The notes beneath the pieces are model-generated. The model was given only the letters and a program-made list of their open reading frames with translations, did no database searches and had not been told where the DNA came from. From Escherichia phage Vec13, in the sequence record NC_048023.1: a stretch of 39,747 nt of DNA. One strand, written 5' to 3'. Shown one piece after another: positions 1-39,747 of this stretch. Within the stretch, counting starts at the first letter, position 1. Every line of letters begins with the position of its first letter. The translations under genes were made by a program, and so were the position numbers.

Positions 1-179
1 TCTCACAGTTCAAGAACCTCAAGTCTCCCCATAGGCCCTCTTTAAGTCCAGACCAAAGGCCCTACCCCAGTCTATCATAAGGTTAGACCGATGGTCAAGA
101 CTTCAGGTCAACGATAGGTGGTGACTATGGCTTAGGGAAGGACGATAGGTGGTGACTATAGGTCTGTCTTTGAGTCTCT
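1..179. repeat. Left direct terminal repeat (DTR), identical to 39569..39747
   Basis: First 179 nt are repeated exactly at the right end of the window; T7-like genomes carry 150-250 bp DTRs. Confidence 0.9.
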
Positions 180-200: not shown

Positions 201-245
201 ACTACCTACAGTCTAACTACCTACAGTCTAACTACCTACAGTCAT
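201..245. repeat. Tandem 15-bp repeats (actacctacagtcta x3) just inside left DTR; further cctacagt copies to about 294
   Basis: Direct reading; similar cctacagt/cctacggt motifs recur at 39490..39540 next to the right DTR, analogous to T7 concatemer-junction short repeats. Confidence 0.7.
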
Positions 246-400
246 AGACCATCGGTAATGCCACTACCTACAGTCAGAGACCTACAGTTAATAGACACAA
301 AGGATATAGACTTAAGGTCTAAGACATGTTAGTCAAAGACTATATCCTCTTACACCAAGGGGCCGACGATAGCTTAATCAATATTATTTCAAATTACCTA

Positions 401-710: not shown

Positions 711-739
711 TTGACAAGATGTAACGATAAGATGTAAGC
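711..739 (+). promoter_or_regulatory. Putative host sigma70 early promoter (TTGACA with weak -10)
   Basis: Perfect -35 TTGACA at 711-716; candidate -10 TGTAAG/GTAAGC 16-17 nt downstream; location comparable to T7 A3. Confidence 0.3.
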
Positions 740-854
740 TGTACCACATCGAAACAACGGTGATGACCAACACTGAAATGGTCTACCTGAAGTCCTCTGA
801 CTGAAGGGAATGCTCTTTAACAATCTGGATAAACTCTTAATGTGCGCCGATAGC

Positions 855-912
855 GACTAACTACAGGGCCTTTGAGTCTACATCTGAAGGCCCTGACTGA
901 TAGTCACTAACA
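855..912 (+). promoter_or_regulatory. RNase III-like processing hairpin preceding first early gene
   Basis: Perfect 9-bp stem cagggcctt/aaggccctg with flanking conserved ctgactgatagtcactaac element shared with 1207..1260 and 1524..1577; T7 R0.3 lies at the equivalent place. Confidence 0.5.
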
Positions 913-929
913 ACCTAAGAGGATTCATT

Positions 930-1208
930 ATGAGACTGAACAAAGCTACAGCAGAAGCCTTTCGCAAGGAGCTTGAATCAAGATTATTGCGTGGAGTGAA
1001 GGAAGAAGCCGCGCGTTATAAAGAGAACGGTCTAACGTTCAAGCGCTTCATGTGGGATTGCTATCGTGGAGTGGGCCATAAGAAGTCGCAGGATATAATC
1101 ATCAGTAACAATACGGAAGTGCAAGTGGTGGGAGGATATATGACTAACGTGAAGGATTCACACATAGAGACCATGCTCAAGAATGCACTTAAAGATGTAG
1201 CCTACTAG
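930..1208 (+). CDS. Hypothetical early protein (92 aa), upstream of ocr
   Basis: ORF with SD aagagga 7 nt upstream of ATG; preceded by RNase III-like hairpin; no homolog recognised. Confidence 0.6.
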   Translation: MRLNKATAEAFRKELESRLLRGVKEEAARYKENGLTFKRFMWDCYRGVGHKKSQDIIISNNTEVQVVGGYMTNVKDSHIETMLKNALKDVAY

Positions 1209-1260
1209 TGATTAACTACAGGTCGTTAGACTGATAGCGGCCTGACTGATAGTCACTAAC
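1207..1260 (+). promoter_or_regulatory. RNase III-like processing hairpin (stem-bubble-stem)
   Basis: Inner stem caggtcg/cggcctg (one G-U), outer stem gtgatta/tagtcac; near-identical copy at 1524..1577. Confidence 0.5.
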
Positions 1261-1267
1261 TTAACGG

Positions 1268-1522
1268 ATGGACACTATGAAACACTTAAGCACAATCACT
1301 AATCACAATGAAGTATTCGTGAACACTAAAGGTTATGCGTGGATTCAGCTTAAAGAGATGAGAGGAGCGCGTCACCGTGTGGTAGTTCGCAAGGTCTCAA
1401 GCAAGCCGTTCAGCAACTACAGCGTAGATATTGTGCGTATAGACAACGAGACTTACCTGATAGACTCGCAGATAACCGTGAGTCCTACAGCGGGAATCTC
1501 AGCTCCTTATTTCGCTAACTGA
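1268..1522 (+). CDS. Hypothetical early protein (84 aa)
   Basis: ORF between two RNase III-like hairpins in the early region; alternative start at 1277; no homolog recognised. Confidence 0.55.
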   Translation: MDTMKHLSTITNHNEVFVNTKGYAWIQLKEMRGARHRVVVRKVSSKPFSNYSVDIVRIDNETYLIDSQITVSPTAGISAPYFAN

Positions 1523-1523
1523 G

Positions 1524-1577
1524 AGTGATTAACTACAGGTCGTTAGAATCATAGCGGCCTGACTGATAGTCACTAAC
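1524..1577 (+). promoter_or_regulatory. RNase III-like processing hairpin preceding ocr
   Basis: Second copy of the 1207..1260 element (differs at 3 positions in the loop). Confidence 0.5.
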
Positions 1578-1609
1578 ATACACACAAACAACTTTGAGAG
1601 GATATAACT

Positions 1610-1942
1610 ATGGAACGTAACGCTAACGCATACTATGAGCTGCTGGCTGCAACCGTTAAATGCTTCAACGAGCGTATTCAGTACGACGAAATAGCTGAAG
1701 GCGATGATTACCACGATGCGCTGCATGAGGTCGTAGACGGTAAGGTTCCGCACTATTACCACGAGATTTTCACGGTGATGGCTGCTGATGGTATAGACCA
1801 CGAGTTCGAAGACTCTGGGCTGATGCCTGAAACCAAGGACGTAACGCGTATACTACAAGCTCGCATCTATGAGGCGCTTTATAACGATGTGCTTAATAAC
1901 TCGGATGTGGTCTGGTTTGAGGCTGAAGAGGACTGCGAGTGA
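1610..1942 (+). CDS. ocr: Ocr-like DNA-mimic anti-restriction protein (T7 gp0.3 homolog)
   Basis: 110 aa; motif [43 protein letters not shown] closely matches T7 Ocr ([43 protein letters not shown]); acidic; SD gagagga. Confidence 0.9.
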
Positions 1943-2097
1943 TGGTAACTTATGGTCTCTGCCAGCACCATGTAGCCAACGCCCGGATTATGGTCAAGAC
2001 CGGGCAGTTAAACCATGATGCGGCTATGCGTCACCTGAAAGCGGTCTATGAGGGCCGCAAGCGTATACACGACAGTTTGCACGCTGAGGACAAGTAA
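1942..2097 (+). CDS. Small hypothetical early protein (51 aa)
   Basis: ATG overlaps ocr stop (tgATG); SD gagga 8 nt upstream; below ORF-track length cutoff; position analogous to T7 0.4-0.6 small genes. Confidence 0.35.
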   Translation: MVTYGLCQHHVANARIMVKTGQLNHDAAMRHLKAVYEGRKRIHDSLHAEDK

Positions 2098-2098
2098 C

Positions 2099-2224
2099 AT
2101 GTACCAGATAACTTATAGCAGTGAACAGGCGTTCTACGATGGGTGCTACGAGATGATGAAGCGCGGGGCTTGCTACGTGGCTAATCACCATAGCCTGACC
2201 ATAACGCTGACAGGTGGGTACTGA
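2099..2224 (+). CDS. Small hypothetical early protein (41 aa)
   Basis: Starts 1 nt after previous stop; SD gagga upstream; tightly packed. Confidence 0.3.
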   Translation: MYQITYSSEQAFYDGCYEMMKRGACYVANHHSLTITLTGGY

Positions 2225-2227
2225 GTG

Positions 2228-2265
2228 ATAGACGAGAGGTCATCGACTGATAGGTGGCCTCAAAG
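2228..2265 (+). promoter_or_regulatory. RNase III-like hairpin (aggtcat ... gtggcct motif)
   Basis: gaggtca pairs with tggcctc (one G-U); same aggtca/tggcct core as hairpins at 6084, 13374, 36491. Confidence 0.4.
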
Positions 2266-2295
2266 ATTACCACTTGCATTGATAGGAGAATTACT

Positions 2296-2463
2296 ATGAA
2301 ATTTACAATCATCGCACTTTACGTAACCATTATTCTATCTTGGCTTACTGCGGTGCTCACTGATGGTAACGCATTACGACTGGGCTGGCTGGCAGTGGAC
2401 ATTATATTCTCTCCGGTAGGTGTCGTGCGCGGCATCTTGATGTGGATTGGACTGGCGGGATAA
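2296..2463 (+). CDS. Small hydrophobic (2-TM) early membrane protein (55 aa from ATG at 2296)
   Basis: SD ataggag then ATG; sequence MKFTIIALYVTIILSWLTAVL...VGVVRGILMWIGLAG is two predicted TM helices; ORF track gives longer 2254 start without RBS. Confidence 0.55.
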   Translation: MKFTIIALYVTIILSWLTAVLTDGNALRLGWLAVDIIFSPVGVVRGILMWIGLAG

Positions 2464-2466
2464 ACT

Positions 2467-2667
2467 ATGAGTCTTGCACTATTGATAGCCATAGGCTATG
2501 GACTTATCGCCTACGTGCTGGTGAGAGACATCAACAAAGCGCGTAAAGTCTACAAATTAAACTATGTACGTCTGGGCCGCTGGACTGTACGTCAACCTAA
2601 CGGACGATTCATGCGTAACTTAGCGAACGTCTGGGATATAGCAACACTTGGGAGCAAACTACAATGA
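2467..2667 (+). CDS. Small early membrane protein (66 aa, N-terminal TM helix)
   Basis: MSLALLIAIGYGLIAYVLV hydrophobic N-terminus followed by basic tail; starts 4 nt after previous stop. Confidence 0.5.
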   Translation: MSLALLIAIGYGLIAYVLVRDINKARKVYKLNYVRLGRWTVRQPNGRFMRNLANVWDIATLGSKLQ

Positions 2668-2990
2668 ACAAGTCATACGGGATTAATCTGGTACACTCTA
2701 TGGATGCAGACATGCAAATGTTAAGCCTACTGGCTACCGGGTATCGTCACGGAACGTCAAGTCACTCCGCACGTCAACAGCAGGAGAGGGACCGGGTACT
2801 ACAAGCAAGACTCAGGGCGGAGGGCCATAAGTCCGAACTGATGTGTCTGGCGTATGGTGGACGACCAATCACTGACGATGGTAAACTTCTGGTCTCAGGC
2901 TGGAAGGCGATAGACCAACGGTCAACCATCAAGCACACGACTCATGGTGACTTCAGTCATCTTCACGCTAACCCTCTGATATGCAAGTGA
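2664..2990 (+). CDS. Hypothetical early protein (108 aa) occupying the position of T7 gene 0.7
   Basis: ORF overlapping previous stop by 4 nt; no protein kinase motifs; unknown function. Confidence 0.5.
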   Translation: MNKSYGINLVHSMDADMQMLSLLATGYRHGTSSHSARQQQERDRVLQARLRAEGHKSELMCLAYGGRPITDDGKLLVSGWKAIDQRSTIKHTTHGDFSHLHANPLICK

Positions 2991-2995
2991 TTCTG

Positions 2996-3018
2996 ACTTA
3001 ACTATCACTATAGGACTC
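2996..3018 (+). promoter_or_regulatory. Phage RNAP promoter immediately upstream of the RNAP gene
   Basis: cttaACTATCACTATAGGAct matches the 11-copy phage promoter consensus; +1 G at 3013. Confidence 0.7.
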
Positions 3019-3087
3019 AAGGTCTAAGACTCCAAGTGAAAGACCAAAGAGACTTTAAGTGAAAGACTAATAACAAGGACTTTAAGT

Positions 3088-5769
3088 ATGAGCGTCATCT
3101 CTATTGATAAACACGACTTCTCTGATGTGTCGAACGCCATTGAGCCGTTTAACCTGCTGGCCGACCACTACGGGCAAGACCTTGCAGTCAAACAGCTTCA
3201 GCTTGAGCATGAGGCATACACTGAAGGCGAGCGACGTTTCATCAAAAACCTTGAGCGACAGACTGAGCGCGGGGAACTGGCAGACAATCAGGTCGCCAAG
3301 CCTTTGATGCAGACTCTGGTTCCTAAGATTGCGCAAGCCGTCAAGGAGTGGCACGAAGGTCCAGACGGGAAGCTGTCAACCTCACGTCCGAGCGTAGCGT
3401 TCACCATGTTAAGCACTGAAGAGAAGGCCGTCAAGGACCGCTCTCTTCGCATCTCCTGCGAGTCTGCTGCGGTTATCATACTGAAGGTCATCCTCTCCAA
3501 GCTGGTCAAGCCTGAAGGTATACCGATTACACCGATGGCCTCCGCGATAGGTCGCACACTTGAGGATGAAATCCGATTCGGTCGCATTCGTGACAAGGAG
3601 AAGGAGCACTTCAAGAAGGCGATAGCTGATAACCTGAACAAGAGAGCCGGGGCATCATACAAGAAAGCCTACATGCAAGCGGTCGAGACATCCATGCTGG
3701 AGCAAGGCCAACTAGAAGATGCGTGGGGAACTTGGAGTCCGACCGAGGCTGTCCACGTTGGAATCAAGATGCTGGAGATTGTCATACAGTCAACACAACT
3801 GGTCGAGCTTAAGCGTTACGGTGCTGGCAATGCAGCGGCTGACGTTGAGATGGTCCACCTGTCAGACTTCTGGGTCAAGAAGATGGCACAACGCGGCTTC
3901 AGCCTTGCGGGTATCGCTCCAGTCTACCAACCTTGCGTAGTTCCACCTAAGCCGTGGACTGGTGTCGTAGGCGGTGGGTACTGGGCCAAAGGTCGCAGAC
4001 CATTACCACTGATTCGCTTAGGGTCTAAGTCTGCGGTGGCACGTTACGAAGACGTGTATATGCCTGAAGTATATGACGCTGTTAACATCATCCAGAATAC
4101 ACCTTGGAAAGTAAACAAGAAGGTTCTTGACGTGGTGAACATGGTCGAGAAGTTGAACAACACGCCTATTGATGACATCCCTCAGATGGAGCCACTGAAG
4201 CCTGAAGACTATGCGGGTGAGACTGAAGAGGAACTCAAGGCATGGAAGAAGGCTGCTGCTGGTATCTACCGCCGAGAGAAGGCCCGGCAGTCACGTAGAT
4301 TGTCACTGAGCTTTATCGTTAACCAAGCGAACAAGTTCTCTCAGTTCAAGGCCATCTGGTTCCCGTACAACATGGACTGGCGCGGTCGCGTCTACGCTGT
4401 GCCGATGTTCAACCCTCAGGGTAACGACATGCAAAAGGGTCTCCTGACTCTGGCAGTCGGTAAGCCTATTGGTGCTGATGGTTTCAAATGGCTGAAGGTC
4501 CACGGTGCAAACTGTGCGGGTATTGATAAAGTAACCTTCGAGGAGCGCATCAAGTGGGTGGAAGATAACCACGACAACATCATGGCTACCGCTAAGGCAC
4601 CGATGGACAGCATTGAGTGGTGGGGGAAGTTAGACTCTCCTTTCTGCTTCCTTGCGTTCTGCTTCGAGTATGCTGGCGTGATGCACCACGGATTGTCTTA
4701 CTCCTGCTCGCTGCCGATAGCTTTCGATGGGTCCTGCTCTGGGATTCAGCACTTCAGCGCTATGCTTCGTGACCACATCGGTGGACATGCAGTAAACCTG
4801 ACGCCTTCCGGTAAGGTCCAAGACATCTACCGCATCGTGTCTGACCGCATTGAGGAAGAGCTTAAAGTCCTGCTGGTTAACGGCACGGACAACGAGATGG
4901 TAACTCACGAGGACAAGAAAACTGGTGAGATTACCGAGCGTCTCAAGCTGGGGACACGAGAGCTGGCCCGTCAGTGGCTGACCTACGGTATGTCACGAAA
5001 GGTCACTAAGCGCTCAGTCATGACTCTGGCCTACGGGTCGAAAGAGTACGGATTCGCAGACCAAGTATACGAGGACATCGTGATGCCAGCGATTGACTCA
5101 GGGTCTGGCGCTATGTTCACTGAACCAAGCCAAGCATCTCGCTTCATGGCTAAGATGATTTGGGAAGCTGTGAGTGTGACCGTAGTTGCTGCGGTTGACG
5201 CGATGAAATGGCTTCAGGGTGCTGCCAAGCTGCTGGCGGCTGAAGTGAAGGACAAGAAGACGGGTGAAATCCTGAAGCCTTGCCTTCCGGTACACTGGGT
5301 CACACCTGATGGGTTCCCGGTCTGGCAGGAATACCGCAAGAAGGATACCACTCGTCTGAATCTGATGTTCTTAGGGTCATTCAACCTTCAGCCTACCGTC
5401 AACAAAGGCACGAAGAAAGAGCTGGATAAGCACAAGCAGGAGTCAGGCATTAGCCCGAACTTCGTCCACTCACAAGATGGTAGCCACCTCCGCAAGACTG
5501 TAGTCCATACTCACCGCAAGTATGGCGTGATGTCGTTCGCAGTGATTCACGATAGCTTCGGGACCATCCCGGCTGACGCTGAGTATCTGTTCCGTGGGGT
5601 CCGTGAGACTATGGTCGAGACCTACCGCGACAACGATGTGCTGCTTGACTTCTACGAGCAGTTTGAATACCAGCTTCACGAGAGCCAGCGCGATAAGTTG
5701 CCAGAGCTTCCGAAGAAAGGTAAACTGAATATCGAAGACATCTTGTCTTCAGACTTTGCATTCGCTTAA
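3088..5769 (+). CDS. Single-subunit DNA-directed RNA polymerase (T7 gp1 homolog)
   Basis: 893 aa; long colinear identity with T7 RNAP incl. FPYNMDWRGRVYAV, LPIAFDGSCSGIQHFSAMLRD, VHSQDGSHLRKTV, HDSFGT, C-terminal FAFA. Confidence 0.98.
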   Translation: MSVISIDKHDFSDVSNAIEPFNLLADHYGQDLAVKQLQLEHEAYTEGERRFIKNLERQTERGELADNQVAKPLMQTLVPKIAQAVKEWHEGPDGKLSTSRPSVAFTMLSTEEKAVKDRSLRISCESAAVIILKVILSKLVKPEGIPITPMASAIGRTLEDEIRFGRIRDKEKEHFKKAIADNLNKRAGASYKKAYMQAVETSMLEQGQLEDAWGTWSPTEAVHVGIKMLEIVIQSTQLVELKRYGAGNAAADVEMVHLSDFWVKKMAQRGFSLAGIAPVYQPCVVPPKPWTGVVGGGYWAKGRRPLPLIRLGSKSAVARYEDVYMPEVYDAVNIIQNTPWKVNKKVLDVVNMVEKLNNTPIDDIPQMEPLKPEDYAGETEEELKAWKKAAAGIYRREKARQSRRLSLSFIVNQANKFSQFKAIWFPYNMDWRGRVYAVPMFNPQGNDMQKGLLTLAVGKPIGADGFKWLKVHGANCAGIDKVTFEERIKWVEDNHDNIMATAKAPMDSIEWWGKLDSPFCFLAFCFEYAGVMHHGLSYSCSLPIAFDGSCSGIQHFSAMLRDHIGGHAVNLTPSGKVQDIYRIVSDRIEEELKVLLVNGTDNEMVTHEDKKTGEITERLKLGTRELARQWLTYGMSRKVTKRSVMTLAYGSKEYGFADQVYEDIVMPAIDSGSGAMFTEPSQASRFMAKMIWEAVSVTVVAAVDAMKWLQGAAKLLAAEVKDKKTGEILKPCLPVHWVTPDGFPVWQEYRKKDTTRLNLMFLGSFNLQPTVNKGTKKELDKHKQESGISPNFVHSQDGSHLRKTVVHTHRKYGVMSFAVIHDSFGTIPADAEYLFRGVRETMVETYRDNDVLLDFYEQFEYQLHESQRDKLPELPKKGKLNIEDILSSDFAFA

Positions 5770-6086: not shown

Positions 6087-6128
6087 TATAGGATTAGACT
6101 CAAGGTCATGACTCAAAGTCGTGGCCTT
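6084..6128 (+). promoter_or_regulatory. RNase III-like hairpin (conserved tagactcaaggtcat ... gtggccttcatgatta)
   Basis: One of three near-identical elements (also 13374..13418, 36491..36538); aaggtca pairs with tggcctt with a G-U. Confidence 0.55.
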
Positions 6129-6169
6129 CATGATTAACCCTAAATAAACACTACTGGAGATTTAACCGT

Positions 6170-13372: not shown

Positions 13373-13373
13373 G

Positions 13374-13418
13374 TCTAGACTCAAGGTCATTCATAGCGAG
13401 TGGCCTTTATGATTAGAC
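13374..13418 (+). promoter_or_regulatory. RNase III-like hairpin (conserved element copy 2)
   Basis: tctagactcaaggtcat ... gtggcctttatgattagac; same motif as 6084 and 36491 copies. Confidence 0.55.
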
Positions 13419-13436
13419 TAAAGCGGAGGATTAACC

Positions 13437-36230: not shown

Positions 36231-36490
36231 CGCAGATGGACTTAGAGAAGTTCCTCTTGATGCTAGATACTGAACGTGCTCGACTCATGCTGCAAGACCT
36301 GCGGGATGACACTAAGCGTTCACCTCAGCTTTACAACGCCATTGAGAAGCTACTGGCTCGTCACAACTTCGTGCTAAGCAAGGTGTCTGTCGACGAGAAG
36401 ACTCTGGCTGATATGGAGGCCCTGAACGCAGAGTACGATAAGGTGCTCTCGGCTACGGAAGATAATGACACCGGGTATGGTGTTCAATAA
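36227..36490 (+). CDS. Terminase small subunit (T7 gp18 homolog)
   Basis: 87 aa ORF immediately upstream of Rz-like and TerL in T7 order; SD aaaggagg. Confidence 0.8.
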   Translation: MTQMDLEKFLLMLDTERARLMLQDLRDDTKRSPQLYNAIEKLLARHNFVLSKVSVDEKTLADMEALNAEYDKVLSATEDNDTGYGVQ

Positions 36491-36538
36491 GTGTTAGACT
36501 CAAGGTCATTACTATATGTAGTGGCCTTTATGGTTAAC
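36491..36538 (+). promoter_or_regulatory. RNase III-like hairpin (conserved element copy 3, R18.5-like)
   Basis: gtgttagactcaaggtcat ... gtggcctttatggttaacac; outer arms gtgtta/taacac complementary. Confidence 0.55.
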
Positions 36539-36591
36539 ACTAACTAGTGGAGGAGACTCTACGTGAAATCTGATAAACCGGGAGGGCAACT

Positions 36592-39568: not shown

Positions 39569-39747
39569 TCTCACAGTTCAAGAACCTCAAGTCTCCCCAT
39601 AGGCCCTCTTTAAGTCCAGACCAAAGGCCCTACCCCAGTCTATCATAAGGTTAGACCGATGGTCAAGACTTCAGGTCAACGATAGGTGGTGACTATGGCT
39701 TAGGGAAGGACGATAGGTGGTGACTATAGGTCTGTCTTTGAGTCTCT
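39569..39747. repeat. Right direct terminal repeat (DTR), identical to 1..179
   Basis: Exact 179-nt repeat of the window start. Confidence 0.9.

Follow-up and report, generated by a model that had tools for sequence, protein, structure and literature searches.

The window, by which we mean the whole 39,747-nt stretch of DNA analysed here, is a complete T7-family genome of the genus Kayfunavirus (K1F-like), and the same contig is present in IMG/VR as IMGVR_UViG_2974574648_000001. Its left end is T7-like, with a single-subunit RNA polymerase gene at 3088-5769, and across the region considered here its closest GenBank relatives are the Escherichia phages Peacock, T147P5, ECG4, LS2 and LS3 (93-97% identity). 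The early region comprises the following features:

711..740, plus strand: putative sigma-70-like early promoter, TTGACA-18 nt-TAAGCT, found by a relaxed pattern scan
849-915, plus strand: hairpin 1, "type 1", T7 R0.3-like, putative fixed left boundary of the cassette slot (-25.6 kcal/mol, z -4.98, 73.3 bits)
930..1208, plus strand: gene A, 92 aa, pI 9.48, phrog_9817 (open reading frame and PHROG match)
1204-1264, plus strand: hairpin 2, "type 2", between A and B, putative cassette junction (-24.5 kcal/mol, z -4.29, 80.2 bits)
1277..1522, plus strand: gene B, probably 81 aa from MKHL, pI 9.69, K1F gp0.2 family, phrog_10124 (open reading frame and homologues)
1521-1581, plus strand: hairpin 3, "type 2", between B and ocr (-23.9 kcal/mol, z -5.29, 80.3 bits)
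1610..1942, plus strand: ocr, encoding the DNA-mimic anti-restriction protein in a 110-aa short form (PF08684, E 3.8e-32; pI 4.22)
2221-2281, plus strand: fourth hairpin, T7 R0.5-like, outside the near-identical trio (32.1 bits, E 5e-5)

The T7 class I region is read by host RNA polymerase and lies on the DNA that enters first. In the T7 record, gene 0.3 is the first gene after promoters A1-A3, as stated in the first-pass annotation of this DNA, which had placed two open reading frames (ORFs) ahead of ocr in the window; the Pfam match listed above confirms ocr 3' of both. Its assignment of the two ORFs to the early region was likewise borne out, since the promoter-like site at 711 and the lack of any consensus phage promoter (CTAAACTATCACTATAGG) before about 2990, all those in the window lying at or past this position, put A, B and ocr in the class I region. 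The 711 site, which was not listed by a stricter promoter scan whose own sites were no more numerous than in shuffled sequence, is the likely source of an early transcript spanning A, B and ocr, judging from its sequence and position.

Several further observations concern the surroundings of these genes. At the extreme left end, two sets of short direct repeats were found, one with two copies of ACGATAGGTGGTGACTAT (window 111-165) and one with four copies of ACTACCTACAGTC spaced 15, 15 and 32 nt apart (window 201-282), and the 32-mer at about 137-168 has a second copy at about 39705-39736, as would fit a terminal repeat (one of 179 nt is annotated in Peacock). A 52-aa ORF, annotated or called, occupies the expected host-promoter region 5' of the first hairpin in several relatives without B, namely Ro103C3lw (L025 824-982) and L030-L032; its product is acidic in Ro103C3lw. 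Ocr also occurs in a longer form (162-169 aa) that has an additional acidic domain at its C terminus, in K1F and yong1 (169 aa each) and in several metagenomic relatives; among the loci compared, the short and long forms showed no correlation with cassette content. From ocr to the RNA polymerase gene (1942-3088), the window contains only small ORFs (41-108 aa) and no gp0.7-type protein kinase, a gene present in T7, AP10 and the Przondoviruses. One of these small genes (1942-2097) overlaps the ocr stop codon and is assigned to phrog_5058; its counterparts in related contigs are flagged PF26807 (Phage_T7_GP04, T7 gp0.4-like), a family that the Pfam scans performed here did not report. Two adjacent small hydrophobic proteins of 55 and 66 aa encoded 3' of the fourth hairpin (2296-2463 and 2467-2667; phrog_7319 and phrog_2385) are probably membrane proteins made early. 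Just 5' of the RNA polymerase gene, at 2990-3015, is a consensus phage promoter (TTAACTATCACTATAGGA), from which the phage polymerase could transcribe its own gene; in the T7 record, no phage promoter is listed from phiOL (405) up to gene 1.

Both ORFs look like real genes, belonging to conserved families and showing an excess of third-codon-position changes (differences at codon positions 1/2/3 of 112/120/298 for A and 29/50/73 for B). Codon differences divide about evenly into synonymous and nonsynonymous ones (201:211 for A, 63:77 for B), which implies moderate purifying selection. ORF A lies exactly where it had been placed (930..1208, 92 aa). For ORF B the location given (1268..1522) holds, and the size of 84 aa probably does not: position 1268 is merely the first ATG of the longest ORF, and the start is probably the ATG at 1277, giving 81 aa, as annotated relatives begin with MKHL at this point and the PHROG profile alignment starts at residue 4. 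Distant homologues of B open with M-x-x-L-S.

The description of the two proteins as unrecognised did not survive database comparison. Protein B is K1F gp0.2 (CAJ29341; 93.8% identity), annotated as such in K1F GenBank records, and both proteins belong to PHROG families, with 60 GenBank phage records for A (query coverage at least 80%) and about 117 for B; both are already known as hypothetical proteins. Protein A aligns over residues 1-92 with phrog_9817 (E 1.5e-26), and its identity to homologues is 88-92% within Kayfunavirus and about 46-60% in other Autographiviridae genera, Apdecimavirus, Przondovirus and Ermolevavirus included. An exact-sequence search with the window's A protein returned no identical record, and a family profile search gave 89 clusters of 75-104 aa, with complete contigs of 38-45 kb. 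Its predicted fold is a helical bundle with a beta-hairpin. Protein B, which matches phrog_10124 (E 1.6e-39), extends beyond the Autographiviridae to N4/G7C-like podoviruses (39% identity) and phAPEC8-like myoviruses (73-74%), where it lies in early or small-gene regions; its being common to unrelated phage families favours a host target over a phage-specific one. Exhaustive profile searching for B retrieved only 17 clusters among 1.84 billion representatives, almost all of them standalone proteins of 65-90 aa. The protein is predicted to be all-beta, possibly a small beta-barrel. An SH3_5 assignment for B was considered and rejected: a match to a protein with five SH3_5 repeats (E 3.7e-7) was summed over near-identical repeats, hhalign gave a probability of just 23.7% over 27 columns, and no SH3b structure appeared in the PDB searches.

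One of the myovirus homologues of B, in the 151-kb genome of phage nepoznato (L024), is flanked on both sides by a repeated unit (2905-3003 and 3240-3338) consisting of TTGACA, about 17 nt, TAATAT or TATAGT, and then a GGGCGGC...GCCGCC stem-loop. This unit resembles the T4 PeSLs considered at the end of this analysis and, by analogy, suggests that the same kind of cassette shuffling may take place in Stephanstirmvirinae.

The profile and structure searches proposed in the first-pass annotation matched neither protein to anything of established function. Pfam, NCBIfam and PADLOC contained no match to A or B, the PDB sequences none that was significant, and fold searches gave no structural neighbour. 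Homology to T7 early proteins was examined by a profile search of the six-frame T7 translation with filters off, in which the best E-values were 1.5 for A and 0.2 for B. By sequence or fold, A and B are unlike any known anti-defence protein, and the Pfam families for ocr and for S-AdoMet lyase (SAM lyase) did not match them. Both are small and basic and lack enzyme signatures, and their basic character (pI 9.48 and 9.69) indicates that they are not DNA mimics such as Ocr (pI 4.22) or ArdA. A GenBank note of a "CNP C-terminal domain" on the yong1 orthologue was not reproduced by Pfam. In the accessory-gene screen of Silas et al., the four conserved A and B motifs are absent from the table of all 200 sequences, as A/B motifs are from the supplements of a 2025 follow-up paper; orf7/aop1 of that screen, which starts with MVLPDNEE, is unrelated to A and B, and orf24, said to share a region with ocr, falls within the table that the motif search covered. 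A literature search on gp0.2, phrog_9817 and phrog_10124 found nothing relevant, and the K1F record assigns gp0.2 no function.

The repeats around these genes, reported by the first-pass annotation as a conserved element accompanying each ORF, are real. Two 57-nt copies (1207-1263 and 1524-1580) are 95% identical, a related copy spans 849-912, and the window has exactly three occurrences of the 20-mer CCTGACTGATAGTCACTAAC, where chance would give 0.01. Each of the three folds into a lower stem, an internal loop and an upper stem, and none of 200 shuffled sequences folded as well. The T7 R0.3 region takes the same folded shape and has lower-stem sequence in common with the window hairpins (UAGCGGAUAAC...GAUAUUCACUAAU in T7, UAGCGACUAAC...GAUAGUCACUAAC in the window). 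The positions of the T7 RNase III sites, which the RefSeq record does not annotate, are those attributed to Dunn and Studier.

To examine the conservation of this structure, we built an 18-copy alignment that draws on the window, five of its Kayfunavirus relatives, AP10 (a Yersinia phage) and T7 (R0.3 and R0.5). Nineteen columns of the alignment are invariant. Under a structure derived from the fold of one aligned sequence, 96.6% of cells pair across the 18 copies, compared with 25-49% when partners are slid, and 9 of 20 pairs have changed on both sides; the observed values were not reached in any of 500 shuffles. The corresponding covariance model gave seven matches in the window with E below 1e-4. 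All seven are plus-strand sites, and those of the early region, four in number, lie between ORFs. Besides the trio, the seven comprise sites at 2221-2281, 6087-6148, 13373-13422 and 36487-36548, which presumably parallel T7 R0.5, R1.1, R4.7 and R18.5. The copy at 2221-2281, which folds weakly by itself (z -1.48), was not used in building the model.

Homology to T7 R0.3, structure and covariation together back the RNase III-like character that had been attributed to the bracketing hairpins, and the covariation strongly supports reading them as T7-type RNase III sites, at which cleavage would be predicted from their homology to the T7 sites. A different account would make them transcription terminators or attenuators, or recombination repeats devoid of any RNA role. 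It could draw on the lack of an Rfam family matching the hairpins and on the fact that the near-identical trio (73-80 bits) is far more alike than the genome's other sites (32-47 bits), as expected from recent duplication. However, no T-run follows any of the stems, so that they are not intrinsic terminators, and a terminator scan listed nothing at their positions; their form and lower-stem sequence agree with T7 R0.3 and R0.5, the related sites are all on the transcribed strand, and pairing is preserved from genus to genus by compensatory changes, for which a DNA-only repeat would have no use. We regard this account as very improbable. As T7-type sites, the hairpins would act on a single early RNA in which host RNA polymerase would transcribe A, B and ocr together; RNase III would cut the internal loop of each, yielding separate A, B and ocr mRNAs, each with a stabilising 3' hairpin.

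Comparison of this region among relatives points to a second role for the hairpins. A census of a few dozen loci from GenBank, IMG/VR, Logan and metagenomes revealed the following arrangements:

Empty site, with the ocr leader following the type-1 hairpin directly: 12 loci, Ro103C3lw among them
B only: K1F and several further loci
A only: yong1, L030 and L032
B then A: 12 GenBank records (Peacock, LS2, LS3, ECG4, PM129-139, 22664UKE3-2, SHAK7854 and T147P5 among them)
A then B: the window only, in the data searched
58-aa gene (phrog_20418) in the slot: L020 and L046
SAM lyase and 106-aa gene in the slot: L018
174-aa or 62-aa protein replacing ocr: L009, L015, L028, L031, L038 and L042

The presence or absence of A and B differs even between near-identical genomes, and the breakpoints are exact. 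Every element ends in the invariant 20-mer, and in all arrangements the junction falls right after CACTAAC; the six bases beyond it are AACCTA before A, TTAACG before B, and ATACAC or ACATAC before ocr, whatever the order of the genes. The first element is always type 1 and is found in every relative, whichever gene comes next, and elements 3' of A or B are type 2. Hairpin 2 of the window combines a 5' part that elsewhere follows A with a 3' end and TTAACG leader that elsewhere precede B, and ocr is the conserved right-hand neighbour of the slot. In AP10, the hairpin after A is about 87% identical to that of the window, compared with only about 57% for the proteins, and shows paired changes in the lower stem.

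These comparisons very probably mean that the early genes here are carried in hairpin-delimited cassettes, with the hairpins having two roles, in RNA processing as judged by homology and in cassette exchange as judged from the relatives. The region 849-1581 would represent two self-contained early-gene cassettes, each made up of a leader, a ribosome-binding site, the gene itself and the hairpin after it, placed as insertions between the host-promoter region and ocr, and such cassettes would be gained, lost, swapped and reordered at the hairpin repeats. Unequal homologous recombination between the hairpin repeats of co-infecting relatives is the likely mechanism; type 1 and type 2 elements share only about 20 nt in the 3' arm and about 13 nt in the 5' arm, which is short for homologous recombination. 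The proposal that the hairpins double as cassette boundaries, drawn here from the aligned loci, is new; a literature search for T7-like phages in which RNase III sites act as recombination junctions yielded nothing relevant.

A or B is found beside an anti-restriction gene, encoding either Ocr or a SAM lyase, in four genera. In Kayfunavirus, A and/or B precede ocr. In the Klebsiella Przondovirus Oda, a homologue of A is the first early gene, directly 5' of a SAM lyase gene (PF23780, E 1e-35), and in the Przondovirus K82P1 a homologue of B has this first position instead, 5' of the SAM lyase gene (E 2e-36) with a T7-type hairpin between them. The order in the Ermolevavirus PGT2 is A, SAM lyase (E 7.5e-24), B, and in the Apdecimavirus AP10 gene A comes after ocr and gene 0.4, between two hairpins. 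At L018 (887-1659; IMGVR_UViG_2974592685_000001), a T3-type SAM lyase gene (PF23780, E 6.9e-40) and a 106-aa phrog_12224 gene occupy the slot between two such hairpins. The recurrent linkage of A and B to anti-restriction genes, as read from these gene orders, is also new here. Because the mechanisms of Ocr and SAM lyase are unrelated, this linkage more likely reflects role and timing than physical partnership.

Two observations on these neighbouring genes bear on their annotation. PHROGs labels the SAM lyase family "SAM-dependent methyltransferase", and this label has spread to the GenBank records of PGT2, Oda and K82P1. In some relatives within Kayfunavirus, a 174-aa protein without a Pfam match (phrog_11084) replaces Ocr right after the hairpin (L009 134-658, L031 1845-2369, L028 1356-1879, and L015, L038 and L042) and is a candidate alternative anti-restriction gene product; in Enterobacter phage MII_004 an apparent frameshift divides it into ORFs of 48 and 126 aa.

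Where A and B lie, their accessory status, their neighbours, the other contents of the slot and the spread across phage families lead us to propose, tentatively and as the likeliest reading, that A and B are host-directed counter-defence proteins. They would bind a host factor very early in infection and complement Ocr. Their lack of resemblance to known anti-defence proteins and their basic charge, at odds with DNA mimicry, count against it. This reading agrees with the description of Autographiviridae leading regions as variable and rich in anti-defence genes (PMC12455610). Position alone cannot separate anti-defence from takeover functions, as early regions also hold takeover genes, such as the gp0.4-like gene after ocr.

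Indeed, T7 gp0.4, gp0.6, gp2 and gp5.5 all inhibit host housekeeping processes, and A and B could likewise be takeover proteins directed against a process such as cell division, the cytoskeleton, transcription or nucleoid function, which would make the cell a better phage factory. Like the gp0.4-like gene (PF26807 on its orthologues), they lie in the early class I region; they are small and lack enzyme motifs, their basic charge would favour contact with nucleic acid or with acidic host proteins, and the cross-family spread of B fits any conserved host target. Takeover functions, however, tend to be fixed within a lineage, and many close relatives carry neither gene (12 empty sites); moreover, the other known occupant of the slot is an anti-restriction enzyme, and in four genera A or B is linked to Ocr or SAM lyase. 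On this evidence we consider a takeover role, the main rival reading, rather unlikely. The patchy presence and absence of the two genes would also be compatible with functions in competition between phages (superinfection exclusion or anti-satellite activity), or with near-neutral passengers moved by the hairpin repeats, all the more so as cassette mobility appears tied to repeated regulatory elements in two phage families and selection on A and B is just moderate at the ratios given above. Yet conservation of the protein cores extends across genera and families, down to 39-57% identity, third codon positions show an excess of changes, and the recurrent siting of these genes next to anti-restriction genes, as the very first to be expressed, argues for a selected function, making competition or passenger status quite improbable.

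Returning to the counter-defence proposal, the explanation as a whole, namely that the window contains hairpin-bounded, swappable early cassettes encoding counter-defence proteins, seems to us reasonably probable. The bolder version, in which A and B found two new counter-defence families and RNase III hairpin repeats are the T7-group counterpart of the T4 PeSLs, assembling as well as reshuffling an anti-defence arsenal at the leading end, is doubtful on present evidence. Decoy and abortive-infection systems triggered by Ocr have been described (Silas et al. preprint); if the bolder version were true, A and B would precede Ocr or SAM lyase because they target systems acting at genome entry or systems that punish anti-restriction proteins. 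As to the first-pass annotation overall, its observation stands, and its interpretation stands in part: A and B are real early genes flanked by T7-type hairpins, and neither the label "unrecognised" nor the 84-aa length was upheld.

In a T7-like genome the leading one to two kilobases enter the cell and are expressed before the rest, so that the genes there are the first to meet host immunity. In this setting K1F gp0.2 and phrog_9817 are two concrete, widely distributed candidates. Since natural phages with neither gene, A, B or both (Ro103C3lw, yong1, K1F and Peacock, respectively) are represented in GenBank, the phenotype is directly testable in near-isogenic comparisons. Hairpins doubling as recombination junctions would explain how T7-family phages swap genes at the leading end without disturbing expression, and such junctions could offer a practical route for introducing payload genes into therapeutic K1F-type phages.

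Four known systems provide points of comparison. K1F gp0.2, like B in the window, sits between the first hairpin and ocr, but K1F carries this single cassette, whereas in the window A is additionally inserted ahead of B. With T7 R0.3 and R0.5 the window hairpins have in common a stem-internal loop-stem form of about 55-60 nt, an early intergenic location and placement on the transcribed strand; they differ in forming three near-identical copies that bracket accessory genes lacking in T7, and in coinciding exactly with the breakpoints of gene gain, loss and reordering. Like Ocr and SAM lyase, A and B are encoded in the hairpin-bounded, early class I region, where they are immediate neighbours of these genes in four genera and a SAM lyase can take the same slot; they show no similarity to either in sequence or fold, the two proteins being basic and Ocr highly acidic. 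The T4-type PeSLs, which consist of a sigma-70 promoter and a terminator stem-loop and flank small genes (Arbiol et al., 2010, PMC2839356; Comeau et al., 2014, PMC4122927), provide the closest parallel for the exchange itself. In both cases short repeated regulatory elements flank small non-essential genes, with recombination explaining the insertions, deletions and replacements that set close relatives apart (PMC2839356), and in the window and its close relatives indel and replacement breakpoints do fall in the repeated element. The hairpins of the window, however, contain no promoter hexamers and are not followed by a T-run after their stems; they are RNA-processing hairpins, by homology, within one transcript. 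Since PeSLs are promoter-plus-terminator units, the hairpin system described here would be an analogue of PeSL shuffling rather than a member of it.
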